Virus record (IMG/VR): IMGVR_UViG_3300042934_000563
Length of the DNA: 64,000 nt
Direction: 5' to 3' (one strand)
Source of the DNA: a virus
Taxonomy: Duplodnaviria; Heunggongvirae; Uroviricota; Caudoviricetes
Made by a program: the position numbers and the translations under genes. Each line of letters begins with the position of its first letter. Within the stretch, counting starts at the first letter, position 1. Below, piece after piece: positions 353 through 63,500 of this stretch. The notes under the pieces were generated by a model that worked only from the letters and a program-made list of their open reading frames with translations, was not told the DNA's origin and did not search any database.

Positions 353-1312
353 TTACTTTCGACCTCCACCGAAGGGGCGGTCCCATCGCTGCGTCATGAA
401 CGCGGAGACGCTGGAGGCGGTGGTGCCGCCGACGACTTTCACGGGGACCTGTGTCGGGGGTGTGTGCGCGGGGATCGAGTACAGGAAGTCTTCGGCGCGC
501 ATTTTGGCCCACTGGAGGCTGCCGTCCATGACGGTCAGCGTCTCGTGGAGCGGGTAGGTGTCGACTAGGAACTCTTGGCCTACGCCGAGGGCGGGGAGGG
601 TGTGGGTGACGTTCTGCCCTGCCTTGGGGTGCCCGACGGGGTAGCGCATGACGCTGTCCGGGAGGGTCCACGTTTGTGTGCTGGTGAGGGTGTTACTTGC
701 AAATTGCACCCAGCACTCTTGGTCGGCGTCGTTCTGGAGGATGAGGTTGCCGAGGCCGGTGCCGTCGGTGTTGGTCCAGGTGCTTACCAGCGTCGTCGAG
801 TACCACCAGGGGTCACATGCGACTGCGGTGATGGCCCAAACCATGTGCTTGGTGACCGACGGGTCGTAGGTGATGGTGTCGGAGGGCTTACGGTCCAGGC
901 GGATTTTGATCTCTCGCCAGCTGGTGCGGTCTGCCGTGTAGTAGCGGAGGTAGCAGTCGTGTTTGAAGCCGAGTACCTCCCACAGGAGGGAGTCGATGGT
1001 CTCCCACAGTTCGGGGGTGTCGCCCTTAGTTGCTAGTCGGAAGTCGAGGAGTCGTTCGTCGACGCGCGGGAAGTCGGACGGCGTCGAACCCTCCTGGTAT
1101 GCCCACGACTCACGTACGGGGGTGCGGGGTGCGTGCATGAATCCGGTGAAGCCGGACAGTAGGCAGATGCCTTGTCCGCCCATCTCCGGACCACAGATGT
1201 CGAGGACGATGAGGTCTACGTCGTTGGCGTCTCGGAGGATGAGTTGCATGACGCGTCCGGGGTGAAAAAGGCTCTGGACCATTGGTTTAGTTGTCCCCTC
1301 GGTAGCGGCCAT
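353..1312 (-). CDS. minor tail protein, likely distal tail protein (Dit-like) by position
   Basis: 319-aa ORF immediately downstream of the tape measure gene and overlapping its 3' end. Beta-rich composition with no enzymatic motifs. Position-based call. Confidence 0.45.
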   Translation of the reverse strand: MAATEGTTKPMVQSLFHPGRVMQLILRDANDVDLIVLDICGPEMGGQGICLLSGFTGFMHAPRTPVRESWAYQEGSTPSDFPRVDERLLDFRLATKGDTPELWETIDSLLWEVLGFKHDCYLRYYTADRTSWREIKIRLDRKPSDTITYDPSVTKHMVWAITAVACDPWWYSTTLVSTWTNTDGTGLGNLILQNDADQECWVQFASNTLTSTQTWTLPDSVMRYPVGHPKAGQNVTHTLPALGVGQEFLVDTYPLHETLTVMDGSLQWAKMRAEDFLYSIPAHTPPTQVPVKVVGGTTASSVSAFMTQRWDRPFGGGRK

Positions 1313-23426: not shown

Positions 23427-23443
23427 GGAAGTCCCTATATCTG

Positions 23444-23489
23444 CTAGTTGCGTTGTTGCCGACAGTTTGTCAGTAGACAACGCAACTAG
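23444..23489 (-). terminator. 13-bp perfect inverted repeat (CTAGTTGCGTTGT...ACAACGCAACTAG) with nested GACAgttTGTC palindrome, between the portal and giant-protein genes
   Basis: Seen directly. Likely an attenuator, terminator or RNA processing site. Confidence 0.45.
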
Positions 23490-23501
23490 CAACTAAGAAC
23501 G

Positions 23502-30359: not shown

Positions 30360-30435
30360 GCCCCTATAGCTCAGTTGGTAGAGCTGCGGACTTTTAATCC
30401 GTATGTCGTAGGTTCGAGCCCTACTGGGGGCACCA
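30360..30435 (+). tRNA. tRNA-Lys (anticodon UUU), CCA encoded
   Basis: Folded by hand. Acceptor stem GCCCCTA/TGGGGGC. D-arm GCTC-AGTTGGTA-GAGC. Anticodon arm GCGGA-CTTTTAA-TCCGT gives UUU. T-arm TAGG-TTCGAGC-CCTA. 3' ACCA. Confidence 0.85.
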
Positions 30436-42736: not shown

Positions 42737-43504
42737 TCAGGCATTGGCTTCGGCTTGCGCGGCGCTGGTGTCCCATAGGGCTCGGGGTGCGGTGCCGAAC
42801 ACGTGGGGGGCGTGTCCTGCGAGCTGGCTGCCGATTTCGATGGCTAGGCGGCGGATCTCGGCGTCGGCTGCGGGGTTGTCGCGCTTGATGAGGAACTCCA
42901 TCCATGCGCGGTAGTTGCCGGTGACGACGATTTTGGTTTCGGCTTCGTTGGGGAGGTGCGCGCGGGCGGCTTCTCGGGCGGCTTTGCGGCTGTATCCGAG
43001 GGCCAGTTTGCGTTGGACCTTAGAGTTGTAGAGGCGGAGCGCGGTGTCGTATGCCTCGGTGTGTTCGGTGAGCGCTTCGGGGTCCATGTCGTCGGCTGGC
43101 GGGATGACGAATGCGATGTCGCTGCTGTCGACGTAGCGCTGGCTGAGTTGGCTGTAGGAGAAGTGCCGGTGCCGGACCAGTTCGTGGGTGAGGGCTCGGG
43201 ACACTCCGGTGATGTAGAAGGTGACGCTGGCGTGTTCGAGGACTGAGTGGTGGACGTGGTCCAGGATGTTTGCGAGGTATCCGGCGTTGGTGGCGGTCGC
43301 GGGGTTGGTCTTGTTCCAGGATTGGTAGCAGGCTCTGCCGGAGAACTCGGCGAGGGCTTGGCCGTCGTAGGTGCCGTTCTCCGGGTCGATGAGTGTCATG
43401 TCGTCCGGGGTGAACAGGTAGCGGGTTTCGTCGCCGTCCAGTCCCAGGGGCGGCTCGAATATGGTGTACCCGACTAGGCGGACTTCCAGCTGCGCGGTTT
43501 TCAT
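42737..43504 (-). CDS. thyX: FAD-dependent thymidylate synthase ThyX
   Basis: ThyX signature 'RHRHFSYSQLSQRY' (RHR-x7-S) and overall length/composition. Confidence 0.85.
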   Translation of the reverse strand: MKTAQLEVRLVGYTIFEPPLGLDGDETRYLFTPDDMTLIDPENGTYDGQALAEFSGRACYQSWNKTNPATATNAGYLANILDHVHHSVLEHASVTFYITGVSRALTHELVRHRHFSYSQLSQRYVDSSDIAFVIPPADDMDPEALTEHTEAYDTALRLYNSKVQRKLALGYSRKAAREAARAHLPNEAETKIVVTGNYRAWMEFLIKRDNPAADAEIRRLAIEIGSQLAGHAPHVFGTAPRALWDTSAAQAEANA

Positions 43505-44063: not shown

Positions 44064-44792
44064 TCACTTTCCGTAGCTGGAGTGGTTGGTCATGTAGCCG
44101 ATGAGGGTGGAGATGTCGACGGGGGCGTGTGCGTCGCATACGCCGTCGCCGGGAATGCAGATCCAGTTGACGTTGACGTTGTGGAAGGGCGGGCGGGGGC
44201 CGGACAGGGTGACTCCGGGGAGGATGTCGGATCCGGCGAGGACTACCTCGATGCCGGTGATGGGCTGGCGGGGGTCGGAGTACAGCTCTACGCGGATACG
44301 GTCCTGGAGGTCGGTGCCGTCGTCGGTGATGCGGTCGCTGTCGATCTCGGATGCCACGTCGCCGACGACGCGCGCGCCCTGGCTGTAGCCGATGAGGATG
44401 TAGCGGCTGTGGTTACCGCACAGGGCCTCGTTTTCGGCGATCCGCTGGCGGAGGTTGGACTTGCCGATCTCGACGGACTGGTTGTAGCTCTCGCTCCAGC
44501 CGTAGGATCCGGCGATCATGCCACCGGGGTAGGCGATGTGCTCGACAATGGTGTCCGGCTGCATCCGGTAGGGGGCTGTCACGCGGTTCAGCGGGGATTT
44601 GGGGTCGATGCTGGTGGGTGTCCTGGGGCCTTTGGTGCCGTCCAGGGCGAGGACCAGGGTGGGGGCGCATTCGGGGGTCCAGCCGGGGTTGGCGTTGGCG
44701 TTGGACGGGAGGAGTGCGCCGATGCCTGCGCCGACGGCGAGGGCAACCATCAGGATAAGTGCGCGGATGAGGTTGCGGGATTCGTTTTTCAT
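44064..44792 (-). CDS. secreted cutinase-like serine esterase (LysB-like)
   Basis: N-terminal signal peptide MKNESRNLIRALILMVALAVGAGIGALLPSNANA. Cutinase active-site motif 'GYSQGA'. Conserved Cys pairs. Confidence 0.7.
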   Translation of the reverse strand: MKNESRNLIRALILMVALAVGAGIGALLPSNANANPGWTPECAPTLVLALDGTKGPRTPTSIDPKSPLNRVTAPYRMQPDTIVEHIAYPGGMIAGSYGWSESYNQSVEIGKSNLRQRIAENEALCGNHSRYILIGYSQGARVVGDVASEIDSDRITDDGTDLQDRIRVELYSDPRQPITGIEVVLAGSDILPGVTLSGPRPPFHNVNVNWICIPGDGVCDAHAPVDISTLIGYMTNHSSYGK

Positions 44793-50980: not shown

Positions 50981-51310
50981 CTAGTTGTCGTCCGCGTTTA
51001 GCGCAAGCTCCGTGGGGTCGGTGATGGTGAATTGGTAGGTGAGTCCAGCGTGTGAGCACATTTTGAGGAGTTGTTGGATGCTGCATCGGTGGAGGTTTCC
51101 GACCATGACGCGGCTTATTTGTGACTGGTTGGTTCCGAGGTGTTGCGCTGCCTCGGTCTGTGTCCAGCCTTGCGTTTCGATGTAGGTGGTGAGGATCCGG
51201 GTGAGTCCGCGCCGGATGGCGTACGCCTGCCGGTTGTGGGTGCGGGATTCGGGGTAGTGCTTGATGGCGGCGTAGTCGTCGTCCGTGGGGATGTCGTGGA
51301 TGGTGGTCAT
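50981..51310 (-). CDS. XRE-family helix-turn-helix transcriptional regulator
   Basis: 'WTQTEAAQHLGTNQSQISRVMVG' HTH. Internal start MTTIHDIP of track frame 50981..51778. Confidence 0.55.
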   Translation of the reverse strand: MTTIHDIPTDDDYAAIKHYPESRTHNRQAYAIRRGLTRILTTYIETQGWTQTEAAQHLGTNQSQISRVMVGNLHRCSIQQLLKMCSHAGLTYQFTITDPTELALNADDN

Positions 51311-52206
51311 GCTGCGGGGTCCTTCGGGGTTTGGCCGGTCCAGGGGAGGGTGAGCCCATCGTCGGCGGTGCGGGGGACGATGTGGATGTGGATGTGTTCG
51401 ATGGTTTGGGTGGCGTCGGTTCCGATGCTGGTGATGATGTTGGCTTGGATGCCTCGGCTGCGGATGAGTTCGGCGGCGTAGCGCATGGCTGCGGCGGCGA
51501 GTTCGGGGGCGGCGGCGGCGTTCTTGGAGTGTGGGATGGGTACGACCAGGGTGTGGCCGGGTGTGACGGGGTTGAGGGGCTCGAATGTGAAGCATCCGTG
51601 GTTTTCGGTGTCGTAGTCGCCTGCAACGAATTTCTTGCAGAATACGCAATCGCGCGCGGGGTGCTTCATAACGATTTCTCCTCGTTGTCGGGGGTGGCGG
51701 CTCTCTCCGTTCGGTGGAGGTGGGAGGAGCATTCGCAGATCCACGGCGGAGGGGTCGTTGCCCTTGTCGCCGTTGCATATGTCGTGGCTGGCTGCCAGGT
51801 TCCAGTATGCGTGGTCGCCTCCCAGACTAGAGGGGACGATGTGGTCGACGGTGGGGCGGAGGGTGTTGAGGCTGTCGCGGGTGCTGTCGTCGATGGGGTC
51901 GCCGCATATGTGGCAGATCCATCCGTCGCGCCGGTAGACGGCTTCTCTGTCGATGATCTGGTAGTGGACGCCCAGCCAGTGCATACGGGCCCGTTGGGGG
52001 GTGTTGCCGGTGTATTTGGGGCGGCGTATTTCGGTGGCGTGGAGGGCGTCGTCCAGGGGTGGGCGTAGTGGCGGTGGTGGCGGTGGTGGCGGCTCCGGTG
52101 GTGGTGGGGGTGTCCGTTTCTTCTTTTTCGCTTTGACAGCCTGTTCCCGTGTGGGGTCTGGCAGGTAGGTCCTTGTCAGGGGGTTGATGAACTCGTGGTA
52201 GTCCAT
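51307..52206 (-). CDS. HNH endonuclease – HIT (histidine triad) hydrolase in-frame fusion with poly-Pro linker
   Basis: HNH block 'WICHICGDPIDD...TVDHIVPSSLGGDHAYWNLAASHDICNGDKGN'. HIT block 'IEHIHIHIVP' (HxHxHxx). 'PPPPPEPPPPPPPP' linker. Internal GAGGAG SD plus ATG (51669) before the HIT part. Confidence 0.65.
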   Translation of the reverse strand: MDYHEFINPLTRTYLPDPTREQAVKAKKKKRTPPPPPEPPPPPPPPLRPPLDDALHATEIRRPKYTGNTPQRARMHWLGVHYQIIDREAVYRRDGWICHICGDPIDDSTRDSLNTLRPTVDHIVPSSLGGDHAYWNLAASHDICNGDKGNDPSAVDLRMLLPPPPNGESRHPRQRGEIVMKHPARDCVFCKKFVAGDYDTENHGCFTFEPLNPVTPGHTLVVPIPHSKNAAAAPELAAAAMRYAAELIRSRGIQANIITSIGTDATQTIEHIHIHIVPRTADDGLTLPWTGQTPKDPAA

Positions 52207-53203: not shown

Positions 53204-53406
53204 ACCTTAATTGCTGTCTGTCCTTAGCGCAATTTGTTGGTCGGCGTGTCGTCACATAGAGAGCATGTGGGGGTGCCGTTCCATGGGTTTCAGGGTGTAG
53301 CGGATGTGGGGGTTTTTGCGGTCGTAGTATGCGCGTCCCATGCTGTGGGTGAGGTTCACCAGGTGGTATCGGTCGCGGTGGCGCTGTGTCTCGGTGTCGA
53401 CTTCTT

Positions 53407-53595
53407 TCATGCTTCGGTGACCTCGGTGGGTAGGTGTGGGTGGCGGCGTTTGTGGAGGTGTGTGCGGACGATTCGCCGGACGGTGTCGGTGTCGCGGAAC
53501 CCTAGTCTGTCGTGTTCGTAGGTGGTGGCGAGGGCCATGATGGTCGGGGCGTCGTTGTATGCCACACGGTGCCGTTCGGGGTAGGAGTCGATCAT
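53407..53595 (-). CDS. RHPH-family small protein
   Basis: ...RIVRTHLHKRRHPHLPTEVTEA. A further approximately 56-aa unit follows (53410 down to about 53240), below the track's size cutoff. Confidence 0.5.
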   Translation of the reverse strand: MIDSYPERHRVAYNDAPTIMALATTYEHDRLGFRDTDTVRRIVRTHLHKRRHPHLPTEVTEA

Positions 53596-53749
53596 GGCTA
53601 GAGGTACTCCGCTCCGATGTGTGGGTGGCGGGCTGCGCGGTAGGCGGTGTTGCGGATCTTCCAGTGTTCGGGGGATCCGTGCCGGAGTCCGACGGTGCGG
53701 AAGATTATCTGTCGGATGTGGGCGGAGTCCGCGAAGCTGTGTCGGGCAC

Positions 53750-53986
53750 TCATGAGGCGACCTCGGGGTCGATGTGGGGGTGCCGCAAGCTGCGGTATCT
53801 GATCTCCTGGATCTGTGTGCGGATGGGGTATTCGTCGGGGCCTCCGAGGTCGTTTGCTCGGGTGATGTGCAGGACTTGCCTGCGGTCGTTGTCGTACGCT
53901 TTCCAGCCGAAGTAGTCCTCCTGGTGGGTCATGTACTCACCCATGAGTCTTTCCACCAGGTTTTGGTGTCGTAGAGGGGTCGCCAT
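53750..53986 (-). CDS. RHPH-family small protein
   Basis: ...IRTQIQEIRYRSLRHPHIDPEVAS. Confidence 0.5.
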   Translation of the reverse strand: MATPLRHQNLVERLMGEYMTHQEDYFGWKAYDNDRRQVLHITRANDLGGPDEYPIRTQIQEIRYRSLRHPHIDPEVAS

Positions 53987-55534
53987 AGGTGGACGTGCCG
54001 TCGGAGGGGGTAGGGGGTCATGAGGATGTGCTCTTTGGTTTTGCTGCTGTCGGGGGTGTGCTGGCGGGCGATGTGGCGGGCATAGTCGTTGTCGCGTGCG
54101 ACGGTGGCGCGGAGGTCTACAGGCCCGCTATGTGGGGGTGTCGGTGGATGATCCATCGCTGGTCTCCGATCATGGGTAGGTAGATGTCGATGATGCCGCC
54201 GATTCGTCGGCGTCCGTCTGGGGTTCTGCGGACGATGGCTCGGAAGGTTTCGCGGTCGAGTTCGTAGGCGTCGATGGCGTTCACGGGTAGATCCATCCTC
54301 GGAGGTGTAGGTGCCGGGTGTCTTCGTGTTTGGCGTCGTGAACCATGTAGTAGAGGTTCCGCGGGAAGTCGTCTCCGTCTTCGGCGGGGAAGATTCTCAT
54401 GAGGATGTCGTCGACGTGGTGGTGGTCGATGACGAACTGGATTTGTCTGCGGGGACTAAACACGGTTGACACTCTCCCAGTACGGGACCATGTGCGGGTA
54501 ACGGTCGGTGGCGTAGCGGCTGTTGGCGATGTGTTTGCCGTGGCCGCTGGAGTCGAACGGGTAGTCGTCGGCGTACCGCTTGAGGTGGGCGGCGATAACG
54601 GCTATATCCGCTGTCCGCTTCTGGTAGGGCCAGTTTCCGCAAGGCATGGTCAGCGCCGCTCGAACAGGTGGGGGTGGCGGACTGCTGCGCTGCGGTGTCT
54701 GACGACGCGGTCGAATAGTCGGCTGGGGTGGTCTTTGATCTCGGTGAGTTCGACGGCGAGGTTGGTGAGGGTGATGTGGTCGCGTTCCCACCAGAGTCTG
54801 GATCGGGTCATGGGGTGGTCTCTCGTTGGTTGATGGTGCTAGTTGTCCGAGTTTAGCGCATGTGTCTAGTCGTCGTCGTAGATGGTGGGGTCGTAGCCGT
54901 CGGATTTTTCGATGCCGTCGTAGAGGGGGCAGGTGTAGGCGGCTTTGATGTGGGGGTGTCTGGTGCGGTGGTGGTCGAGTTCGTGGAGGAGGGCTCCGAG
55001 TGGGTTGGGGACGATTCTGGGGTCGTAGAACTTGTTGGCGTTGTCGTCGAGGACGGTGATGTCCAGGTGGGGGTTGAGGGTGCTGTAGCGGTAGAGGGCG
55101 TGTTCTAGGTCGTAGTGGTATTCGTGGCGGTTGGTTGCGTAGTGCTTGCGGGTGTGTCTGGCTTGGGATGGTGGGAAGGGGAGGACGGGGGTGGGGGTCA
55201 TCTGTCGTACCTCCAGGGGGTCATGTGTGGGTGCCGGTTGCGGATGTAGAGGGTGTCGTTGGTGAGGTAGGTGGGTTGTCTGCCGATGAGGACTACCAGG
55301 TAGTTGTCGTCGATTCGGGACCAGCCGCGTATCTGCATCTCCTGCTGTGAGGTGAAGTCGGGTAGGGATGTCATCGTCGGGTAATCATCCGTCTCATGTG
55401 GGGGTGTCTGTGGGATACGTAGAGGGCTCTGGTGGCGTACATGTCGATTCCACGTACGAGTTTTTCGATGTGTTGGTCGTCGACGGTTGTCCAGCCGCGT
55501 ATCTGGGTTTGTGCTCGGAGGTTGGCGGCGGGGG

Positions 55535-55735
55535 TCATCGAAGTACCTTCCAGAACATGTGCGGGTGCCGGTGGTGTCGGTAGAGGGCTCTGATGAGGGT
55601 GTGTTCGTCGTCGGTGCAGGGGTCGGTTCGCTTTATCAGCGTGGCGAGGGTTATGTCGTCGAGTCGGAACCAGGCGCGTGTCTGGATTTCGATGCGTCGT
55701 TCGGCTGCTGCGGTCATCGGGGGATCCTGAACCAT
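55535..55735 (-). CDS. RHPH-family small protein
   Basis: ...TLIRALYRHHRHPHMFWKVLR. Confidence 0.5.
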   Translation of the reverse strand: MVQDPPMTAAAERRIEIQTRAWFRLDDITLATLIKRTDPCTDDEHTLIRALYRHHRHPHMFWKVLR

Positions 55736-56110
55736 TCCATGTGTTTGTGGCGGGTGCCGGAGTTGATGGTGTTGGCGAGGTTGTTGCGGTGTCGGTAGTA
55801 GTCCTCTGTGAGGTTGGTGGAGTATCTCGGGAGTTCGCGGAGGTCGTGGACGTGTTTGTCGTCGGCGCGGGTCCAGCCTCGTCGGCGGATCTGTTCGCGG
55901 AGTTGGGCGGGTTCGTCGGTGAGGTCTGTGTGGATGTAGGGGACTCTCATAGTTCGGGGTCTCCGGTGGTGAGGGTGTCGTCGATGTGTGGGTGTCGGTC
56001 CATGTGGAGGACGGGGATCTGCATTCCGAGGTTCAGGGCGATGTAGCGGCTGGTGATGGGGCCGTAGGTGTCGGGTAGGTGGAGGTCGTCCTCGGGGCGG
56101 TGGTGAAAGG

Positions 56111-56329
56111 TCATCGGGAGAGGGTGAGGTTGGCGAGTTCGCCGATGACGTATCGGATGTGTGGGTGGCGGACGTAGGTGAATGCTTGGCGGTAGACGGG
56201 GTGGTAGTGCCTGCCGTTGGCTTCTGCGGCGGATTCGTGGGCGCTGCGGATGCCGTAGTCGTCGCGCATGGCTGCGAGGGTGTCGCGGTCGGTGCGGAGG
56301 GCGGTGTTGTTGACGTTCCATTTAGGCAT
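56111..56329 (-). CDS. RHPH-family small protein
   Basis: ...YRQAFTYVRHPHIRYVIGELANLTLSR. Confidence 0.5.
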   Translation of the reverse strand: MPKWNVNNTALRTDRDTLAAMRDDYGIRSAHESAAEANGRHYHPVYRQAFTYVRHPHIRYVIGELANLTLSR

Positions 56330-56518
56330 TTAGTGGTCTACTCCGGGTGGGGTGGGGGGATGGGCGTATGGGATGTGTGGGTGGCGGTCCTTATGCAGTA
56401 CAGCATAGTCGTAGTCGAGGGTGTATTCGATGCCGTATTGGTCGAATAGGTCGTTGACGTGGAAGTGGTCGACGGTGGCGTAGGCGCGTCGGGATCGGAG
56501 GACGTTGTGTCTGTTCAT
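56330..56518 (-). CDS. RHPH-family small protein
   Basis: ...DYDYAVLHKDRHPHIPYAHPPTPPGVDH. Confidence 0.5.
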   Translation of the reverse strand: MNRHNVLRSRRAYATVDHFHVNDLFDQYGIEYTLDYDYAVLHKDRHPHIPYAHPPTPPGVDH

Positions 56519-56712
56519 AGGGCTGTCCTTGGGTGGGGGTGAAGGAATCCGTCCCCGTCGGTGCGGTTGATTCCTAGGTGTGGGTGGCGGTGGAGGTGGT
56601 AGACGACGGGGTTGTATAGGGGTTGGTAGTGGTGGAGGTCGTAGCGCTCCAGGATGTCGTAGGTGGTGCGGTGATCGCGTTTCCTGTAGCGCTTGAAAAA
56701 TACCCAGCTCAT
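56515..56712 (-). CDS. RHPH-family small protein
   Basis: ...YNPVVYHLHRHPHLGINRTDGDGFLHPHPRTAL. Confidence 0.5.
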   Translation of the reverse strand: MSWVFFKRYRKRDHRTTYDILERYDLHHYQPLYNPVVYHLHRHPHLGINRTDGDGFLHPHPRTAL

Positions 56713-56907
56713 GCGAGGTATCCGGTGGCGAATTTGAGTTTGATGGCGAGGTGCCGGTCGTCGGCGTAGACGATGCGTCGGACGGGGTGGTGGAGGATTT
56801 TTGGGGTACCGATTGGGTAGACCTCGTAGTCGCGGGAGTAGAAACCGAGGTTTCGGGCGTTGGCGCGTCGGGCGTTGTCGATGGTCATCATGGGCTTACT
56901 CCGGGGG

Positions 56908-57117
56908 TTAGAAGGGGTAGCTGCTGGTGTTGGCGTAGGTGGGGGAGAACGGGTTGAGGTGTGGGTGGCGGTCGGCTACCCAGGTGGTGTTGTAGATGAG
57001 GTTGTAGATGCGGTGGATTTCGTGGACGGGGATGTCGGCGATGTCGGCGTCTCGGACGCGTTCGCGGTAGAGGTTTTGGGCGGCGCGGTAGTCGTGGGTG
57101 CGGGTGTTGTGGGTCAT
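56908..57117 (-). CDS. RHPH-family small protein
   Basis: ...RTHDYRAAQNLYRERVRDADIADIPVHEIHRIYNLIYNTTWVADRHPHLNPFSPTYANTSSYPF. Confidence 0.55.
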   Translation of the reverse strand: MTHNTRTHDYRAAQNLYRERVRDADIADIPVHEIHRIYNLIYNTTWVADRHPHLNPFSPTYANTSSYPF

Positions 57118-57996
57118 CGTTGTGTGGTGAGGGGTCGGGGCATGTGGGGGTGCCGTTTGTGTGCGTGGGAGGCACAGTTGATGAGTTTTCCCTGGCGGAT
57201 GGTGGCGTGGGCGCGTTGGGGGGTGTTGACCGTGTGTTGGTAGTCGCGGCGTTGGATGTCGTATCTGTTCATCGGTAGTGCTTTCTGATGTGTGGGTGTC
57301 GGTGTCCTGGGTTGACGAGTCGGGTGTAGTTCCGAATGTCTGGGTGGTATCCGCCGTGGTAGTAGGTGTCGACGATGCGGCGCAGTATGGCTTCGTCCCA
57401 GTTTTCCCGGTTTTCGGTCATGGGTGAGGTGGTCCAGAGTGAGGGGCCTGAGTAGAGGTTCATAGGTGTAGGTATCCGTGGATCTGTGGGTGTCGGGTGA
57501 TGGTGTCGGAGGTGTGCCGGAGGGTGACGGCTTGCTGGCGTGATGCGGTGACGGATCGTCGGAGGAGGCGGTAGCCGTGGTGGCGGTCGCGGCATTCGGC
57601 GAGGTTGGCGCGCGCGTAGGTTGCGGCTACGTCGTCGTCGGACATTACCAGGCTCTTTCGTCGATGATGGATGGCGCGATGTGGGGGTGTCGGCGGGTGG
57701 TGGTGAGTGCTCGGACGATGTGGCTGCGTCCTGGGTTTCTGCCGTAGTTGTGGTTGCGGCGGAGGGCGAGGATGAGTGGTCGGTCGCGTTCGGTGTTGGT
57801 GGTCATGCGTCTCATGGGGCGCACCTGGCGGCGATGGTGTTGTCGATGTGGGGGTGGCGGTGCCAGCGGTCGACGGTTCGCATGGCTGCGCGGGTGTGGG
57901 TGCTGTTGTAGCTGTAGTCGTCTCCGAGGTGTCGGATGGCGAGGGTTTTTGCGTTGTTGTAGTCGGTGACGGCGCGTTCCTGGAGGTTGTCTCGGT

Positions 57997-58197
57997 TCAT
58001 GGGAGGGCCTGGTCTGTGATGTGTGGGTGTCGGTGGAGTGGTGTGCATAGTTTGATGCATCGGCGGCGGAATCTGGGGTTTACGCGGTAGTTGGTGGCGC
58101 GTGGGGCGTACGGGTCAGCGACTTGGGCGAGGTGGTGGAGGTCGTCTTGTTCGCGGGCGAGTCTGCGGTAGTGGGGGGTGTTGTAGCGGGGGTTCAT
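57997..58197 (-). CDS. RHPH-family small protein
   Basis: ...RRCIKLCTPLHRHPHITDQALP. Confidence 0.5.
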   Translation of the reverse strand: MNPRYNTPHYRRLAREQDDLHHLAQVADPYAPRATNYRVNPRFRRRCIKLCTPLHRHPHITDQALP

Positions 58198-58965
58198 GGT
58201 AGGCGGAGTTCCTCGTCGGTCATGTGTGGGTGTCGGTAGGTGTAGCGGGTGGCGTTTTTGATGATGATGTGGTCGTAGTAGCTGGGGAGGTAGTCGATGA
58301 TGTCGCCGACGGCGTAGTAGTCGGCGCGTCCGATGCGGGCGTAGTTGCTGTTCACAGGTTGGCGATCTGGTGGGGGAGGTGGATGTGTCGGACGCGTCGG
58401 TCGATGGTGCGGAGGATGGTGTGGCGGGTGCCGGATCCGAGGGGGGTGTCGTGTATGTCGGCGAGGTAGGCGCTGACGTTGTAGTCGCTGGTTTGGAGGG
58501 TCATAGTGCGCTCACTTGTGGGGGTAGGTGGGGGTGCCGGTTGTGGCGGTAGATGCTGTGGAGGACGCGGTAGCGGGCAGCTGTTTCGGATGGGATGCGG
58601 TGGTTGCGGGCGAGGCAGAGGGTGGCGACGTGGTCGTGGGTTTCCAGGGTCATAGCGTGGTGATTCCTGTGGATAGGTGGGGGTGTCTGCGGAAGGGTTG
58701 GACGCTGTTGACGATGCGGAGGCGGTCGATGTCGTAGCCGTGGAGTCCTGCGGTGGCAGCGATGCCGCACAGGTGGAGGTATTGGGCGCTGTAGAGGTCT
58801 CGGGTCATGGTCAGGGCCATCTTCCGAGGTCGATGTGGGGGTGTCTGTGGAGGGGGTGGGCGAGGTTGGTGAAGCTGAGGCTGGTGGCGGGGCCAACGTT
58901 GAGGTCGCGGCGGTTGTGGATGTCGATGAACAGTCTGGTGTCGTGGCCGAACGTCTTGGGGATCA

Positions 58966-59163
58966 TCATGTGTGCAGCTCCAGTCCGATGTGGGGGTGTC
59001 TGCTGGTGGGGGCGTCTTGTTGGCTGATGCGGTTGCGTTGGGGGCGGGTGATGATGCGGTCGTAGCCGCATTTTCTGTTGTGGGTTCGTACCAGTCTGAC
59101 GTGGTGGAGTCCGTCGACGCGGACTTGCCGGATGACGCGGTTGAGTGCGGGGCGGCGGGTCAT
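58966..59163 (-). CDS. RHPH-family small protein
   Basis: ...ISQQDAPTSRHPHIGLELHT. Confidence 0.5.
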   Translation of the reverse strand: MTRRPALNRVIRQVRVDGLHHVRLVRTHNRKCGYDRIITRPQRNRISQQDAPTSRHPHIGLELHT

Positions 59164-59498
59164 CTGGTCACCATACTGTCAGCATGTGCGGGTGTCGGAT
59201 GTTGACGTATGCGGCGCGGAGGACTTTCTGTCGGGGCTTGGTGAAGTGGATTAGTTGCTGTTTGTCTGCGAGGTCTTGGAGGTAGATGAGGGTGTCGGCG
59301 AATTGTTCGTAGTTGGTTTGGGCAAATGAGGGGTTCATTGGCGTGTGAGGTTTCTGGGTAGGTGGGGGTGCCGGTGGACGGGGTAGGCGGCGAGTCTGAT
59401 GCAGCGGGCGGTGAGGTTTCGGCGGCGGGGGTTGTTGCGGTGGGCTCGGAGGAGGAGGTCGAGGGTGTCTACGTCGTCGTAGTGGCGGTAGAGGTTCA

Positions 59499-59699
59499 TC
59501 AGTAGATGTCGTCGGGGGTGTGGGGGTGGCGGGTGTATTGGTTGGTTCCGGCGTCGATGATCTGTGCTCGGGTGGTGTAGTCGGCGAAGCTGCCGTGGAA
59601 GTAGAGGCGGTGGTGGTCGGCGAGGTCGCTGGCTGCGCCGTAGTCGCGGCGGTGTCGTTTGATCTCGATGGGGGTGAGGGGTGGGGGTTCGGTGCTCAT
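59499..59699 (-). CDS. RHPH-family small protein
   Basis: ...RRDYGAASDLADHHR...AQIIDAGTNQYTRHPHTPDDIY. Confidence 0.55.
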   Translation of the reverse strand: MSTEPPPLTPIEIKRHRRDYGAASDLADHHRLYFHGSFADYTTRAQIIDAGTNQYTRHPHTPDDIY

Positions 59700-59709
59700 G
59701 GGTGGTTTC

Positions 59710-59904
59710 CTAGCGGATGTTGGGGTGTATGTGTGGGTAGCGGTTGCGTACGTCGGCGTTGTCGACGATGCGGTGGTAGTTGCGGGTGTCGGTGTAATGG
59801 TCGTCGCTTCTGTAGGTGTTGTGGAGGTAGAGGCTGTGCATGGCGGCGAGGTTCTCGTAGTGGTCGTAGTCGAAGCTGGTTTGGGACATTTTTCGGAGGG
59901 TCAT
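59710..59904 (-). CDS. RHPH-family small protein (RYPHI variant)
   Basis: ...YHRIVDNADVRNRYPHIHPNIR. Confidence 0.55.
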   Translation of the reverse strand: MTLRKMSQTSFDYDHYENLAAMHSLYLHNTYRSDDHYTDTRNYHRIVDNADVRNRYPHIHPNIR

Positions 59905-59907
59905 GGG

Positions 59908-60099
59908 TTACCACCAGGCTAGTTCGGGGTCGATGTGGGGGTGTCGGTTGTAGTTTTCGGGGAGTCCGATGATGGTCCGGTAGGTGTGGGCGCGGCGTTT
60001 TCCTCGGTAGACGGAGATGTAGGGGTAGCCGTTGGCTGCTGCGACTTTTTTGAAGTACCAGAAGTCGCGGTCGGTGATGGCTTGTTGTTCGGGGGTCAT
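59908..60099 (-). CDS. RHPH-family small protein
   Basis: ...TIIGLPENYNRHPHIDPELAWW. Confidence 0.55.
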   Translation of the reverse strand: MTPEQQAITDRDFWYFKKVAAANGYPYISVYRGKRRAHTYRTIIGLPENYNRHPHIDPELAWW

Positions 60100-60293
60100 A
60101 GTTGTCCGGCTAGGGGGGTTCGGGGGTGGCGGACGTAGGGGAGGTGTTGGTTGACGATGCGCCAGTGGGTGGGGGTGGTGCGGTTGGTGTATGCGTCGGG
60201 GAAGCTGTGGCCGTTGGCTTTGGCGAGGTCGTCTAGGTGGTCTTCGTCGGCGTATTGGCGGTCGTAGAATCCGGCGTGGGTGTGGTGGATCAT
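60096..60293 (-). CDS. RHPH-family small protein (RHPRT variant)
   Basis: ...THWRIVNQHLPYVRHPRTPLAGQL. Confidence 0.5.
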   Translation of the reverse strand: MIHHTHAGFYDRQYADEDHLDDLAKANGHSFPDAYTNRTTPTHWRIVNQHLPYVRHPRTPLAGQL

Positions 60294-60496
60294 CGTCCGG
60301 TCCGGTTGGGGGTGGTGAGTGGGGTTCCGAGGTGGCGGTTGCCGCTGGTGCAGTTTTCGAGGATGCGCCAGTAGGCGCGGGGGTCGCCGCGTTCGACGGC
60401 GGCTTTGTGGTTGACGCCGTGGTAGAGGGCGATGTCGTTGAGGTGGCGGATGTCTTCTTGGTGGTGGGTGATTAGTCGGAGGTGTGGGGGGATCAT
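60290..60496 (-). CDS. RHPH-family small protein (degenerate NRHLG variant)
   Basis: ...AYWRILENCTSGNRHLGTPLTTPNRTGR. Confidence 0.5.
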   Translation of the reverse strand: MIPPHLRLITHHQEDIRHLNDIALYHGVNHKAAVERGDPRAYWRILENCTSGNRHLGTPLTTPNRTGR

Positions 60497-60708
60497 CTGA
60501 GTCCTTGGCGGGTGAGTTCGTGGGGGATGTGGTAGTGGCGGATGCCTGCGAGTGAGGTGTCGACTATGCGCCAGTGGGTGCGGTCTAGTTGGGCGTAGTC
60601 CACTCGGGTGTTGTGGTCGCGGGCTGCTCGGAGGATGTCAGCGTGGTTGATGTCGGCGATGGTTCTGGTGTGTTTGTAGTCGGTTTCTCGTCGTTCGTGG
60701 GTGGTCAT
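60493..60708 (-). CDS. RHPH-family small protein (RHYHI variant)
   Basis: ...TDYKHTRTIADINHADILRAARDHNT...HWRIVDTSLAGIRHYHIPHELTRQGLR. Confidence 0.55.
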   Translation of the reverse strand: MTTHERRETDYKHTRTIADINHADILRAARDHNTRVDYAQLDRTHWRIVDTSLAGIRHYHIPHELTRQGLR

Positions 60709-60896
60709 CGTGCTCCGATGGTGGTGAGTCGGTCGGGGAGGTGTGGGTGTCTGTGGTCGGGGTGGGAGGTTCGCACGATGTACCAGTAGAGGGTGTCTGC
60801 GTCCGGGTCGTGGTGGTTGAGGAGGGTGGTTTTGTTTCTGTCGGTGATGGCGCTGATGTAGGGGTAGTCGATGCGGAGTTGTTCGCGGGGGGTCAT
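60705..60896 (-). CDS. RHPH-family small protein
   Basis: ...YWYIVRTSHPDHRHPHLPDRLTTIGAR. Confidence 0.6.
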   Translation of the reverse strand: MTPREQLRIDYPYISAITDRNKTTLLNHHDPDADTLYWYIVRTSHPDHRHPHLPDRLTTIGAR

Positions 60897-61081
60897 TCGG
60901 CGAGGTCCTTGGTGATGTGGGGGTGTCGGCAGGTGGGGAGTGTTTGTTTGGTGATGCTTTGGCCGGTGTCTCCGAAGCGTTCGCCGGGGAGTGTGTGGTT
61001 GCGGGCGATTCTGTCGGCGTGGTTGTAGTCGATGACGGTCCGGTCGTAGAGGCGGTCTCCGGGGTTGATGTAGCTGGTCAT
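60893..61081 (-). CDS. RHPH-family small protein
   Basis: ...VIDYNHADRIARNHT...TKQTLPTCRHPHITKDLAE. Confidence 0.6.
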   Translation of the reverse strand: MTSYINPGDRLYDRTVIDYNHADRIARNHTLPGERFGDTGQSITKQTLPTCRHPHITKDLAE

Positions 61082-61278
61082 CGGTTGGTGGCCTCCATGA
61101 TCTCTCTGCCTAGGTGTGGGTGCCGGTGGTGGCGGGTGGCTTGGTCGATCATGTGGAGGTCGACGTTGGCGTAGCCGTTTTCGCGGGGGGTGTGGATTTC
61201 GGCGAGGTCGTCGATGTGACTGTAGTCGCGGGTGAATTGTTGGGTGGTGTGGCGGTTGTGTTTGATCTTGGGTTTCAT
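61078..61278 (-). CDS. RHPH-family small protein
   Basis: ...TRDYSHIDDLAEIHT...HMIDQATRHHRHPHLGREIMEATNR. Confidence 0.6.
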   Translation of the reverse strand: MKPKIKHNRHTTQQFTRDYSHIDDLAEIHTPRENGYANVDLHMIDQATRHHRHPHLGREIMEATNR

Positions 61279-61472
61279 GTGCGTAGTTCCTGGAGTAGCT
61301 GGAGGTGGTGGGGGTGGCGGTAGTAGGTGCTGGCTTGGTCGGCGATGCGGTAGCCGGGGTTGGGGTGGCCGACGGGCATGGGGGCGATGTGGGTGCGGAT
61401 GAGTGAGTGGAGGGTGGAGTAGTCGCGGCGGTAGATGTGTTCGTAGGTGCGTTGGTAGGTGGGTGCGGTCAT
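61275..61472 (-). CDS. RHPH-family small protein
   Basis: ...RRDYSTLHSLIRTHIAP...YRIADQASTYYRHPHHLQLLQELRT. ATGA overlap. Confidence 0.6.
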   Translation of the reverse strand: MTAPTYQRTYEHIYRRDYSTLHSLIRTHIAPMPVGHPNPGYRIADQASTYYRHPHHLQLLQELRT

Positions 61473-61660
61473 CGGTGGTTCCTGATTTCTCGGATGAGTT
61501 TGGTGTGGTGGGGGTGTCTGCCGAGGGGGCTGGCTTGGTCGGCGATGAGGCTGGTGTGGGTGGGTATTCCGAGGGTGTCGTGGGTGGTGGTGTGGTCGCG
61601 GGCGATGTGGTCGAGTGCGTTGTAGTCGCGGGTGAGAGCTTGGCCGTAGGGGGTGGTCAT
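61469..61660 (-). CDS. RHPH-family small protein
   Basis: MTTPYGQALTRDYNALDHIARDHT...SLIADQASPLGRHPHHTKLIREIRNHR. Confidence 0.6.
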   Translation of the reverse strand: MTTPYGQALTRDYNALDHIARDHTTTHDTLGIPTHTSLIADQASPLGRHPHHTKLIREIRNHR

Positions 61661-61848
61661 GTGTAGTAGTTCCCCATGTGTGGGTGGCGGTTGTGTGCGG
61701 CGGCTTTTCCGTAGATGCCGAAGTAGGTGTCCATGCGGTCGGTGTCGCCGTTGCAGCTTCTCCAGGTGTAGCCGTTGCGGTCGGCGACTAATCCGAGTGC
61801 GCCGGAGTCGATGTTGAGTTGGGTGATGTGTCTAGAAGTGCTGCGCAT
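61657..61848 (-). CDS. RHPH-family small protein
   Basis: ...KAAAHNRHPHMGNYYT. Confidence 0.55.
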   Translation of the reverse strand: MRSTSRHITQLNIDSGALGLVADRNGYTWRSCNGDTDRMDTYFGIYGKAAAHNRHPHMGNYYT

Positions 61849-62026
61849 AGGGGCCGCTCATGTGTGGGTGTCGGTTGATTTGGTGGGTGAGGTCGACGAT
61901 GAGGCCGTGGATGTGGACGCGGGTGCTGTCTCGTTTGCAGTGGGCCCATCCGTAGCCGTGGGTGATGGCGATGTCGCCGAAGGCGTCGAGGTCGGTGATG
62001 TGTACGTCGAAGGGGTCGCGGGGCAT
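61832..62026 (-). CDS. RHPH-family small protein
   Basis: ...THQINRHPHMSGPYAQHF. Confidence 0.55.
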   Translation of the reverse strand: MPRDPFDVHITDLDAFGDIAITHGYGWAHCKRDSTRVHIHGLIVDLTHQINRHPHMSGPYAQHF

Positions 62027-62223
62027 GGGGTGCCTGTCAGTGGTAGTCGAGGTGGGGGTGCCGGAATCGGATGGATGTGGCGGTGCGGATGTGGTGGTGG
62101 CTGTACTCCCACCAGTAGGGCTTGGGTGTGGGTAGGCGGTAGGCGGTTCTGGCGGTGATGTCGTCCAGGTATCGGGCGTCGCGGATCCGGGCGTCGAGTG
62201 GGTTGAGGGGCATGTGGGTCCTG

Positions 62224-62385
62224 TCAGTGGAGGTGGGGGTGTCGGAATCTGAGTTGGGAGTTTCGGACGATGATGGTGTGGCTGTGGAGCCAGCTGGGGT
62301 GGACTTTGTCCCAGTCGGCGGCGTTGTGGGTAGCTACGCGCTGGAGGTGCTCGGAGTCCCGGATCCGGGCTTTCTGTGGGTGGGT
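62224..62385 (-). CDS. RHPH-family small protein (first array unit; ...LRFRHPHLH)
   Basis: Internal ATG of track frame 62224..62532, immediately downstream of two tandem TTGCGCTAATC.GGGAC motif copies. Confidence 0.5.
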   Translation of the reverse strand, partial: THPQKARIRDSEHLQRVATHNAADWDKVHPSWLHSHTIIVRNSQLRFRHPHLH

Positions 62386-62397
62386 GGGCATCTTGCC

Positions 62398-62461
62398 ATT
62401 GTCCCTGATTAGCGCAACCTTGGCAAGTGGGCCCTGGTGGTGTCCGGGATTAGCGCAAGTG
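62398..62461 (-). promoter_or_regulatory. two tandem copies of TTGCGCTAATC(C/A)GGGACA about 42 bp apart, immediately upstream of the RHPH array
   Basis: Plus-strand GATTAGCGCAACC at about 62404 and GATTAGCGCAAGTG at about 62446. The minus-orientation copies are separated by 25 bp. The ATG of the first array gene follows the proximal copy by about 19 nt, suggesting a short or absent leader. Confidence 0.5.
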
Positions 62462-62530: not shown

Positions 62531-62590
62531 ATATATACGACTCTCCGAGTCGTATCGTTCGCGTTGCGAACGACCGTAGCGCTGAGCGCT
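62531..62590. repeat. three consecutive perfect palindromes (ATACGACTC-tcc-GAGTCGTAT; CGTTCGC-gtt-GCGAACG; CGTAGCGC-tga-GCGCTACG)
   Basis: Seen directly. Located between the end of gene 62589..62846 and the array promoters. Confidence 0.6.
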
Positions 62591-62846
62591 ACGCTGCGCC
62601 CTCGGGCGGAGTCTCCAGGATCTCGATCAGCTGGAGGCCAATTCCAGCCTCTGTGGTGCCCTGTAGGGCCCGTGCGTACTCGAACAGTGTCGCCCTGGAC
62701 TGTATGAGGAGCTGGACAGCTGCCAGCATCCCAGCGACATCCTCGGTCCGAAGCGATACCCGAGGTTCATCCTCTAAATGCGCCTCCAGCACAGCACCCT
62801 GCACGCGCTCCAGCAGTACGACGATGGGGTTGATGGGTTCAGTCAT
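62589..62846 (-). CDS. hypothetical small protein
   Basis: About 85-aa ORF (MTEPINPIVVLLERVQGAVLEAHLEDE...). A GTG at 62852 could be an alternative start. Confidence 0.4.
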   Translation of the reverse strand: MTEPINPIVVLLERVQGAVLEAHLEDEPRVSLRTEDVAGMLAAVQLLIQSRATLFEYARALQGTTEAGIGLQLIEILETPPEGAA

Positions 62847-62852
62847 AGGCAC

Positions 62853-63060
62853 ACACTATGCGAACCATGCACGCACACCATGCACACCATGCACTGCACA
62901 CATGGACAGCTATGCACATACGCATACACATGCACACATACACACAGTACATACATGCTGGTAGACCATGGTATTGCTATGTGTATGTGTATGTGGGTAC
63001 ACACATACACACATGGGTATGTACCACACTATGTAGTACCTATGTAGTAGGGCCTGTAGT
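62853..63060. repeat. CA/TG-rich alternating purine-pyrimidine tract with reiterated CATGCAC(A) heptamers and TATGTGTATGTG / GGTACACACATAC palindromic segments
   Basis: Seen directly. Non-coding, and compositionally very different from the rest of the window. Confidence 0.6.
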
Positions 63061-63500
63061 AGGGGCCCTATATAGGCCCTATGTGGAGGGCCCTATATGC
63101 GACTTCTCCATAAGGCCCATATAGAAGGCCCTATATAGGCCCTTTCTGGGCAATTCGATATATGCGATTTCCCTATTAGAGCCTCCAGGAGGGCCCATAT
63201 AGCGAAACGCGCATATGGGGATCCTTAGCATAGGCAACTTTTCTACCAGGGCTTATTAGGGAACCCTTATCCAGCTTTACATAATGGGTATTATCGGCAA
63301 AGTTTGTATATCCGCAGGTCACAGCGTTTTCGATTTCTTTGTACCACGGTACAAACCCTAATACGGTTGGTACAAAGGATTTGGGCGGATCCGGCCAACC
63401 GAGCAGGGCCAGCCGGACCCTTTCAAACAACCCACGGCGCAGGAAACGCCAATTCCCAGACATCCCTCGGGGGAGACGAAAGGCCCATATGGGGCCCTCC
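63053..63500. repeat. at least 7 copies of the palindromic motif GGCCC(T/A)TATA(G/T)GGCCC, plus TTTGTACC-acg-GGTACAAA and TTGGTACAAA sites
   Basis: GGGGCCCTATATAGGCCC (63063), GGCCCTATATG (63088), GGCCCATATAG (63113), GGCCCTATATAGGCCC (63124), GGCCCATATAG (63188), GGCCCATATGGGGCC (63480). Lower-GC stretch 63240-63340. Confidence 0.6.

Follow-up and report, generated by a model that had tools for sequence, protein, structure and literature searches.

What does a tailed phage encode in a tandem array of dozens of very small open reading frames (ORFs), most of which carry the residues R-H-P-H shortly before their stop codon? This question is raised by the window analyzed here, a stretch of 64,000 nucleotides (nt) from the IMG/VR virus record IMGVR_UViG_3300042934_000563 (Caudoviricetes), for which an initial annotation made from the sequence alone had described such an array. 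Our analysis revealed that the array is real and encodes a family of paralogous proteins, whose 49 genes are tandem duplicates that are old and have diverged. The array runs on the minus strand from 62391 to 53252, occupies 9140 nt (14% of the window) at a coding density of about 1.0 and consists of 49 consecutive small ORFs of 50–111 amino acids (aa; median 63), numbered here u1 to u49 from position 62391 downwards. The array itself and the initial estimate of 45–50 units were thereby borne out, while its start proved to be 62391 and not 62390.

The units had been proposed to be translationally coupled, and their arrangement has this appearance. Twenty-nine of the 48 unit junctions are 4-nt overlaps of a start and a stop codon (-4; ATGA, in one case GTGA), and in a total of 38 junctions the neighbouring units overlap or have no more than 4 nt between them; a single long gap (54 nt) interrupts the array, between u40 and u41. 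Ahead of 26 of the 49 starts, a G-rich motif resembling a Shine-Dalgarno (SD) sequence was found at positions -18 to -4, compared to 9.7% of random 15-nt windows within the array, and G occurred at positions -14 to -7 of the starts in 12–19 of the 49 units compared to about 5 of 49 elsewhere. TGA serves as the stop codon of 39 units, TAG of six and TAA of four. The same gene series was called in a strain variant of the phage, L002, by an independent (Prodigal-type) gene caller.

The 49 products could be aligned as one family, with a near-invariant N-terminal Asp (48/49) followed, about 35 residues later, by a C-terminal R-H-x-H motif in which Arg is found in 49, the first His in 47 and the second His in 45 of the 49 units; the third residue of the motif is Pro in 42 units, and the residue after it is hydrophobic (Ile, Leu or Met) in 44. 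Other scaffold columns comprise Leu or Ile at helix position 21 (40/49), His or Tyr at column 28 (37/40) and Ile at column 40 (29/49). The scaffold deduced in the initial annotation was thus recovered in its Asp, Leu/Ile, His/Tyr, Ile and R-H-x-H columns, but not in the Tyr of its D-Y pair, which is present in only 15 of the 49 units. Exact RHPH occurs in 41 units, where about 0.2 would be expected from the amino-acid composition, and the few RHPH strings outside the array but in the window lie within ordinary genes. All the degenerate variants listed earlier (RHLHL, RHVHL, RYPHM, RHKHM, RHIHL, RHPQI, RHPRT and RHYHI) were found, and RYPHI, RHLG, RHLA, RHPHT and RHPHH were identified in addition. 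When profile hidden Markov models (HMMs) were applied in a leave-one-out scheme, 43 of the 49 units scored above 15 bits and 45 above 10 bits, compared to a maximum of 6.7 bits among 245 shuffled controls; u27, u31, u32 and u40 were weak members of the family. A six-frame profile search of the window identified no member outside the array.

The copies are only about 20% identical in protein sequence, the mean column identity of the part N-terminal to the motif being 16%, and the best-conserved stretch comprises the approximately 17 C-terminal residues, with the motif 2–27 codons (median 8) ahead of the next start. Neighbouring units were more alike than distant ones (mean score 48 compared to about 36) and units 1-2, 3-4, 5-6, 9-10, 21-22 and 37-39 formed mutual-best pairs, which we interpret as the trace of local tandem duplication. 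Neither recent duplicates nor concerted evolution was observed among the copies. At the DNA level, copies are 60–80% identical over 30–65 nt at most, and Tandem Repeats Finder reported no array and no period near 190, indicating that the units are old duplicates and not the product of a recent amplification.

That selection acts on the protein and not on the DNA of the motif, as the initial annotation had argued from synonymous variation, was confirmed both within the array and between strains. The motif Arg is encoded by CGA in 16, CGC in 14, CGG in 11, AGA in seven and CGT in one of the units, and the Pro by CCC in 22, CCA in 16 and CCG in three, while the Ile, Leu or Met after the motif is preserved through codon changes at first and third positions. 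For comparison we used strain variants of the same phage lineage, of which L002 is 95–97%, L006 and L007 84–88% and L008 and L009 about 90% identical to the window; samples with variant lineages include ERZ27246356, ERZ27315818, SRR15706710 and SRR35185192. When units were paired with their orthologs in two further strains (69 pairs), the codon of the motif Arg had undergone 21 synonymous changes, including exchanges between CGA and AGA, and not a single non-synonymous one, and nine synonymous changes were found in the Pro codon. The Asp, the Arg and the two His residues each showed no amino-acid change in 69–70 orthologous pairs, compared to a mean of 10.5% per position. In an ungapped DNA alignment with L002, the ratio of non-synonymous to synonymous substitution rates (dN/dS, omega) was 0.52 when read in the annotated frame, compared to 0.92 and 1.28 in the alternative frames. 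The invariance of the CAC codons in the motif was considered as a sign of DNA-level constraint and rejected, since 187 of the 192 His codons that the array contains outside the motif are CAC. Third codon positions of the units are occupied by C in 71%, G in 9.8% and T in 1.7% of cases, compared to 50–60% C and 22–28% G in the structural genes and 28% C and 41% G in an 87-aa gene upstream of the array. This extreme composition of synonymous positions explains the very high GC skew, which reaches 0.47, and may itself stem from a mutational strand bias or from selection acting on the mRNA.

The strain comparison also revealed that units are gained, lost, fused and recombined between strains and that this turnover is ongoing. 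L002 lacks u5 and u21, both as whole units, and the breakpoint of the u21 deletion falls within the homologous segments formed by motif, tail and next start at the u20/u21 and u21/u22 junctions. In L006, a single hybrid unit generated by unequal crossover replaces u37 and u38, and in L002 a 1-nt indel removes the motif of u24 and fuses this unit to u25 (128 aa), while u24 is intact in L006. Degenerate motifs were kept in orthologs (RHYHI, RHLG, RHPRT, RYPH, RHKH, RHLH and RHVH/RHAH), thus defining R-H-x-H as the minimal invariant core.

Protein-guided codon alignments of the array gave a dN/dS of 0.53 against L002 and 0.60 against L006, while three flanking genes gave 0.20 and 0.32, showing that the array evolves faster than the neighbouring genes. 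Omega was 0.26 for the scaffold columns (the Asp, the Leu, Ile and Ala positions of helix 1, the His/Tyr column 28, the Ile column 40 and the motif), 0.91 for columns 12, 13, 16, 17, 19, 20, 23 and 24, which alternate with the conserved positions of helix 1 and were picked as a class post hoc, 0.82 for the tails at both ends, which lie outside the alignment, and 0.59 for all other positions. Hence, the hydrophobic face of helix 1 is constrained, and its other face and the tails are nearly neutral. The units also differed in rate (chi-square p = 0.005 against L006): u35, u36, u39, u48 and u49 were tightly kept, while u12 (omega 1.8 against L002) and u34 (1.9 against L006) lay near or above 1, none of them individually significant. 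An origin of the highly diverged units by recombination from a distant lineage was not favoured, u12 having an ordinary dS (0.09) and a high dN. Overall, a dN/dS of 0.5–0.6 that reaches at most about 0.9 at the most variable positions indicates that selection is relaxed or mixed, and positive selection was not demonstrated. The rapid diversification suggested in the initial annotation is thus only partly borne out. Each copy is kept individually by selection.

All 49 units look cytoplasmic, with hydrophobic segments of at most seven residues, no transmembrane segment and no signal peptide. They are rich in Arg (11.8%) and His (9.4%; 2–11 residues per unit) and poor in Cys (0.5%), and their isoelectric points range from 5.2 to 12 (median 9.3) and their net charges from -6 to +10. 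AlphaFold2 predicted all-helical models both for u8 (predicted local distance difference test score, pLDDT, 79; predicted template modelling score, pTM, 0.58) and for u38 (pLDDT 71.5; pTM 0.41), each starting with a long helix, after which come two or three short ones, and with R-H-P-H immediately behind the third; a fold search with the AlphaFold model found no structural relatives. The conserved polar residues include candidate metal ligands, namely Asp (48/49), His or Tyr (37/40), His (47/49) and His (45/49), and this set fits what a small His/Asp metal site would need.

The initial annotation knew of no phage with a paralog expansion of this size, and we found none in GenBank phages or in any large collection searched. 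Nor is the array an annotated multi-copy family, as its members had no significant match among Pfam-A, PHROGs v4, NCBIfam and PADLOC profiles or PDB sequences. Searches of GenBank phages by megablast with the array and by tblastn with eight concatenated units were without match, no family member was present in the left arm of phage GodonK, and a profile word-index search returned the array's own proteins only. An exhaustive profile HMM search of 1.84 billion protein representatives yielded 31 matches, all of them units of this lineage except P0031, encoded on a 1.4-kb contig (L005) without nucleotide similarity to the window. This contig carries at least four consecutive degenerate units (…RHPTW, …RHPHLWS, …RHRHLF and …HHRHN; 565-1373, plus strand) after a 156-aa gene. 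In its relative L436, this place is taken by other genes, and the contig has what may be a single-copy member (…FRHPHIDT…; 5723-5929, plus strand) that scored only 10 bits and for which no other relatives were found; tblastx of L436 against the window gave compositional noise only. DNA-pattern scans for two or three CACCCNCAC motifs at unit spacing produced only chance matches in IMG/VR, nothing in GTDB genomes and, in JGI metagenomes, only the same phage in one sample. A flanking 107-aa gene had no relatives in IMG/VR, no array was present in 80 IMG/VR loci around homologues of the small subunit of ribonucleotide reductase (RNR), and literature searches on related phages and on phage paralog arrays turned up nothing specific. 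The protein family therefore appears to be new, with no homologue in anything searched, and seems to be confined to a small group of phages, in which its copy number ranges perhaps from one (L436) through at least four (L005) to 47–49 in this lineage; this distribution suggests that the family expanded from one gene.

Signals that could drive expression of the array were found in front of it and within it. The 17-bp motif TGCGCTAA-N4-GGACA is present in 11 copies in the window compared to 0.95 expected, lies on the strand of the downstream genes in 10 of the 11 cases, also ahead of plus-strand gene islands in the structural region, and is probably the main promoter/operator type of the phage. 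At six sites it forms the arrangement TTGCGC-N17/18-TAnnGT, plausibly an actinobacterial promoter. Two copies precede the array and one (54860-54844) lies inside it, in agreement with the initial annotation, and the motif sites of the array are identical across strains that differ by 12–16% in the surrounding DNA. The TTGCCA-17-GACAAT sequence that includes the second copy ends 6 nt before the ATG of u1, and the mRNA may thus be leaderless. No terminator-like site was found on the coding (minus) strand inside the array.

From these sequence features, we tentatively favour the reading that the array specifies a co-transcribed and translationally coupled repertoire of mini-proteins with a common scaffold and diversified surfaces, including a role in interaction with the host; our confidence in the existence of the protein family is far higher than in this overall reading. 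The array would be transcribed as one or two long polycistronic mRNAs, from the promoter-like sites at 62457 and 62416 and possibly from that at 54860, and ribosomes would move on to the next gene through termination-reinitiation at ATGA overlaps, aided by the SD-like sequences in the preceding tails, so that all 49 proteins would be made together. Each protein may be a small helical bundle, in which a bound metal ion (at a His/Asp site) or a network of salt bridges probably fastens the R-H-x-H segment to the Asp and to the His/Tyr with which helix 1 ends. This shared scaffold, with net charges from strongly negative to strongly positive, would present about 49 different surfaces and hence constitute a hard-wired repertoire of small binders against host factors, which might serve host takeover, counter-defence or host range, with copies gained and lost in the pattern of a genomic accordion. 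A bolder version of this proposal, which we consider possible but doubtful, is a germ-line-encoded library of about 49 mini-binders on a His/Asp-stapled helical scaffold, made from a single coupled mRNA, neutralising polymorphic host defence or takeover targets and grown from a single-copy gene. Of the functions suggested initially, counter-defence decoys and Zn/His-ligand proteins stay hypothetical, and an array of orphan immunity genes is disfavoured, as no toxin domain was found in the neighbours scanned and the units matched no immunity fold or profile.

Several points weigh against the repertoire reading. Omega was never significantly above 1, and the data agree with relaxed constraint no less than with diversifying selection, while the class of variable helix-1 positions was chosen from the very substitutions on which its omega was calculated. 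The structural models are of moderate confidence, and those of u8 and u38 are not independent, since both were built on the same alignment of 48 paralog sequences. The three motif copies upstream of and inside the array have no convincing -10 hexamer and may thus be operators and not promoters, which qualifies the promoter/operator role initially given to them. Finally, early expression is assumed from position alone, i.e., from the location of the array after terminator-like hairpins and near genes of nucleotide metabolism.

The strongest alternative, which we nonetheless judge to be rather unlikely, is a dosage or bulk function, in which all copies do the same job, many copies raise the output and the diversity is drift. 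An abundant small Arg/His-rich protein could serve as a coat for nucleic acid or as a metal sink, for example, or one host protein could be saturated with a shared R-H-x-H peptide. The high content of Arg and His and the median isoelectric point of 9.3 agree with such a function, as do the omega of 0.6–0.9 at most positions, where only a handful of residues are constrained, and the loss or fusion of units between strains. However, the copies show no concerted evolution, are only about 20% identical and include no recent duplicates, a charge that varies from -6 to +10 gives no uniform nucleic-acid-binding character, and the units differ significantly in constraint. Moreover, the motif was kept in every copy though divergence erased nearly all else, which argues for selection on each copy and not on the sum.

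A second alternative is that the units encode cis-acting nascent peptides, in which R-H-P-H and the hydrophobic or aromatic residues upstream of it form an R-x-P ribosome-arrest motif and the released peptides are functionless; a pause a few codons ahead of each overlap would govern reinitiation at the following gene or make the long mRNA act as a trap for ribosomes. R-x-P arrest peptides are known from SecM (...IRAGP) and the RAPP family, in which the final Pro is essential. Like them, the units are short ORFs followed by another cistron and have Arg-x-Pro as a core close to the C-terminus, the motif lies a median of 8 codons before the next start, conservation peaks in the approximately 17 C-terminal residues and the array is built for translational coupling. 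In contrast to SecM and RAPP, the fourth residue is His in 45 of the 49 units and not the essential Pro, and the array combines 49 copies with a distance to the next start that is not fixed, a conserved Asp 35 residues upstream, a periodic hydrophobic pattern in helix 1 and a fold predicted by AlphaFold. Forty-nine serial arrest sites on one mRNA would also be without obvious use. We regard this explanation as very unlikely.

Slightly less likely still are precursors similar to those of ribosomally synthesized and post-translationally modified peptides (RiPPs), with R-H-P-H-[ILM] as a recognition or cleavage site and the variable tail of 2–27 residues as the core peptide. The order of a conserved motif and a hypervariable tail would suit such precursors, the many tandem copies recall prochlorosin-type families, and one unit had a chance-level match to a RiPP family (E = 0.074). 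On the other hand, the "leaders" are not conserved (16% mean column identity), Cys makes up 0.5% of residues, Ser and Thr are not concentrated in the tails, tail lengths are erratic and no modifying enzyme, protease or transporter was recognised in the neighbours scanned, which did not cover all small neighbours, making a RiPP-like role highly improbable. The least credible alternative is a repeat acting as DNA or RNA, either as CGNCACCCNCAC sites bound by a protein of partition, replication or packaging or as RNA that is structured or acts as a sponge, whose ORFs are a by-product of a T-poor strand open in all frames: the coding strand is indeed open in all three frames, its composition and GC skew are extreme and 8 of the 12 motif bases are fixed, but the motif is invariably found in the frame equipped with start codon, SD-like site and stop codon, its DNA spacing is irregular (146 to over 300 nt), neither Tandem Repeats Finder nor Rfam matched the array, and the codon variation, including first-position changes at the Arg and at the Ile, Leu or Met, together with the strain comparison and a dN/dS below 1 in the annotated frame only, largely excludes it.

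The features of the array and its surroundings are listed in Table 1. The phage is a siphovirus, of which tape measure, major capsid, portal and large terminase genes were identified, all on the minus strand, and its nearest isolates are the Gordonia phages GMA2, GodonK and Sixama (portal 55% aa identity). The presence of a LysB-like esterase suggests a host among the mycolic-acid-containing actinobacteria. Along the minus strand, the RNR genes are followed by about 1.1 kb of non-coding DNA, the 87-aa gene, three hairpins, two motif copies and the array. Between the RNR genes and the 87-aa gene, the GC content drops to 0.565 in the non-coding stretch 62852-63300, which contains dense imperfect palindromes of the GGCCCTATATAGGCCC type (63048-63161) and inverted and tandem repeats of CACA/TGTG (62852-63020) and could be a replication origin or a regulatory region. 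On the other side of the array, variant L008 (ENA ERZ28597170; 1425-1920 aligned to window positions 40856-40370) joins position ~52511 directly to ~40856 and is missing about 11.6 kb in which the window has small genes downstream of the array. In the structural region, a 1773-aa ORF (18171-23492, minus strand), whose only match is weak and confined to the C-terminus (head maturation protease, E = 2.6e-6), is unusually large for its position between the portal and capsid genes, and a tRNA-Lys(UUU) gene (30360-30435, plus strand) belongs to an island on the plus strand, situated between the terminase gene and the early-type region upstream.

Table 1. Coordinates of array units, motif copies and other features in the window
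Feature	Position	Strand	Remarks
Whole array, u1-u49	53252..62391	-	Orphan family, signature D-x(~13)-[HY]-x(~20)-R-H-[P]-H-[ILM]
u1, 55 aa, RHPHL	62224..62391	-	Start 6 nt past GACAAT, a -10-like hexamer
u5, 63 aa, RHPHH	61469..61660	-	Entire unit absent from L002
u8, 62 aa, RHPHI	60893..61081	-	AlphaFold2 model (pLDDT 79) with predicted helices 10-28, 38-45, 49-52 and 58-61
u12, 65 aa, RHPRT	60096..60293	-	Fastest-evolving unit against L002, with 25 non-synonymous and 4 synonymous changes
u21, 50 aa, RHPHL	58501..58653	-	Entire unit absent from L002
u24, 66 aa, RHPHI	57997..58197	-	Frameshifted in L002, intact in L006
u27, 61 aa	57460..57645	-	RHPQI in the window and L002, RHPHI in L006
u37 and u38, 66 and 55 aa	55371..55735	-	Single hybrid unit in L006; u38 AlphaFold2 model (pLDDT 71.5) all helical
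u40, 111 aa	54866..55201	-	Resembles two fused units (degenerate LNPHL, then RHPHI) with an acidic tail
Motif copies	10414, 29483 (+); 37649, 41351, 45311, 51005, 53231, 54860, 62416, 62457 (-); 63736 (+)		
First upstream motif copy (TTGCGCTAATCCCGGACA)	62441..62457	-	
Second upstream motif copy (62416-62400)	62398..62426	-	Within sigma-70-like TTGCCA-17 nt-GACAAT, ending 6 nt before the u1 ATG
Internal motif copy, u40/u41 gap	54844..54860	-	Identical in L002, L006 and L007
Motif copy directly after the array	53215..53231	-	TTGCGC-17 nt-TAAGGT, ahead of the next gene block
Three consecutive hairpins	62535..62594	-	Terminator-like, no U tract, z = -3.4; between the 87-aa gene and the array promoter region
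LysB-like PE-PPE/cutinase esterase	44064-44792	-	
ThyX thymidylate synthase	42737-43504	-	Downstream of the array
Single ORF with Pro-rich N-terminus, HNH endonuclease and HIT (histidine triad) domains	51307-52206	-	Downstream of the array

If the units are diversified binders, they would form a panel of about 49 small and easily expressed proteins, each of which may inhibit a different host function or defence, and could thereby provide a source of anti-defence or growth-inhibitor proteins for mycolic-acid actinobacteria such as Gordonia, Rhodococcus and Mycobacterium, as well as a natural minimal protein scaffold that tolerates almost any surface. It would also follow that accordion-like growth can fill about one tenth of a tailed-phage genome, provided that this genome measures 100–120 kb like those of its relatives, and can persist until the copies have diverged to about 20% identity. 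Should the mini-binder library exist as proposed, it would parallel immune-type repertoires in a phage and represent, to our knowledge, the largest tandem paralog expansion in a tailed phage. Whatever its function, the array should allow serial termination-reinitiation to be studied cleanly over 49 cistrons.

We know of no described counterpart in tailed phages, and none emerged from our searches, for 49 diverged paralogs chained by start/stop overlaps, but several known systems share some of its properties. Lytic phages carry host-takeover and anti-defence clusters, such as the host-takeover module of SPO1 and anti-CRISPR (Acr) loci, and these likewise consist of tightly packed, very small orphan genes behind recurrent promoter/operator motifs. 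However, the genes of such clusters are unrelated to each other, whereas the array comprises 49 paralogs of one family without homology to Acr, anti-defence or PADLOC proteins. In archaeal viruses, anti-defence genes are found behind a shared regulatory motif (PMC11065993). A closer analogy in evolutionary terms is provided by the lpl and ssl clusters of Staphylococcus aureus, which also consist of diverged tandem paralogs with a conserved segment. In the lpl lipoprotein cluster, a single evolving unit joins the 3' end of an ORF to the 5' end of the following one (PMC2568036), and in the array, too, breakpoints fall in the conserved segment formed by 3' end, junction and 5' end, as seen for the u21 deletion and the u37/u38 hybrid. 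The lpl and ssl proteins, though, are secreted proteins or lipoproteins of at least 250 aa encoded on a bacterial chromosome, in contrast to phage proteins of about 60 aa that are predicted to be helical and have no signal peptide.

Viral multigene families and genomic accordions include the amplification of K3L in poxviruses (Elde et al., 2012), the multigene families of African swine fever virus and the duplications of giant viruses (reviewed in PMC13359090). As in these, tandem paralogs arose by duplication, copy number varies between close strains (L002, L006) by unequal recombination, the location is non-structural and dN/dS exceeds that of neighbouring genes. In contrast to them, the array is found in a tailed phage, its copies are ancient (about 20% identical) and did not arise by recent amplification, the unit measures about 60 codons and is chained in 49 copies by start/stop overlaps, the family is without known homologue and positive selection was not demonstrated. 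In conclusion, while viral multigene families and accordion-like expansions have already been documented (PMC13359090), the protein family and the architecture in which this phage carries it appear to be new.

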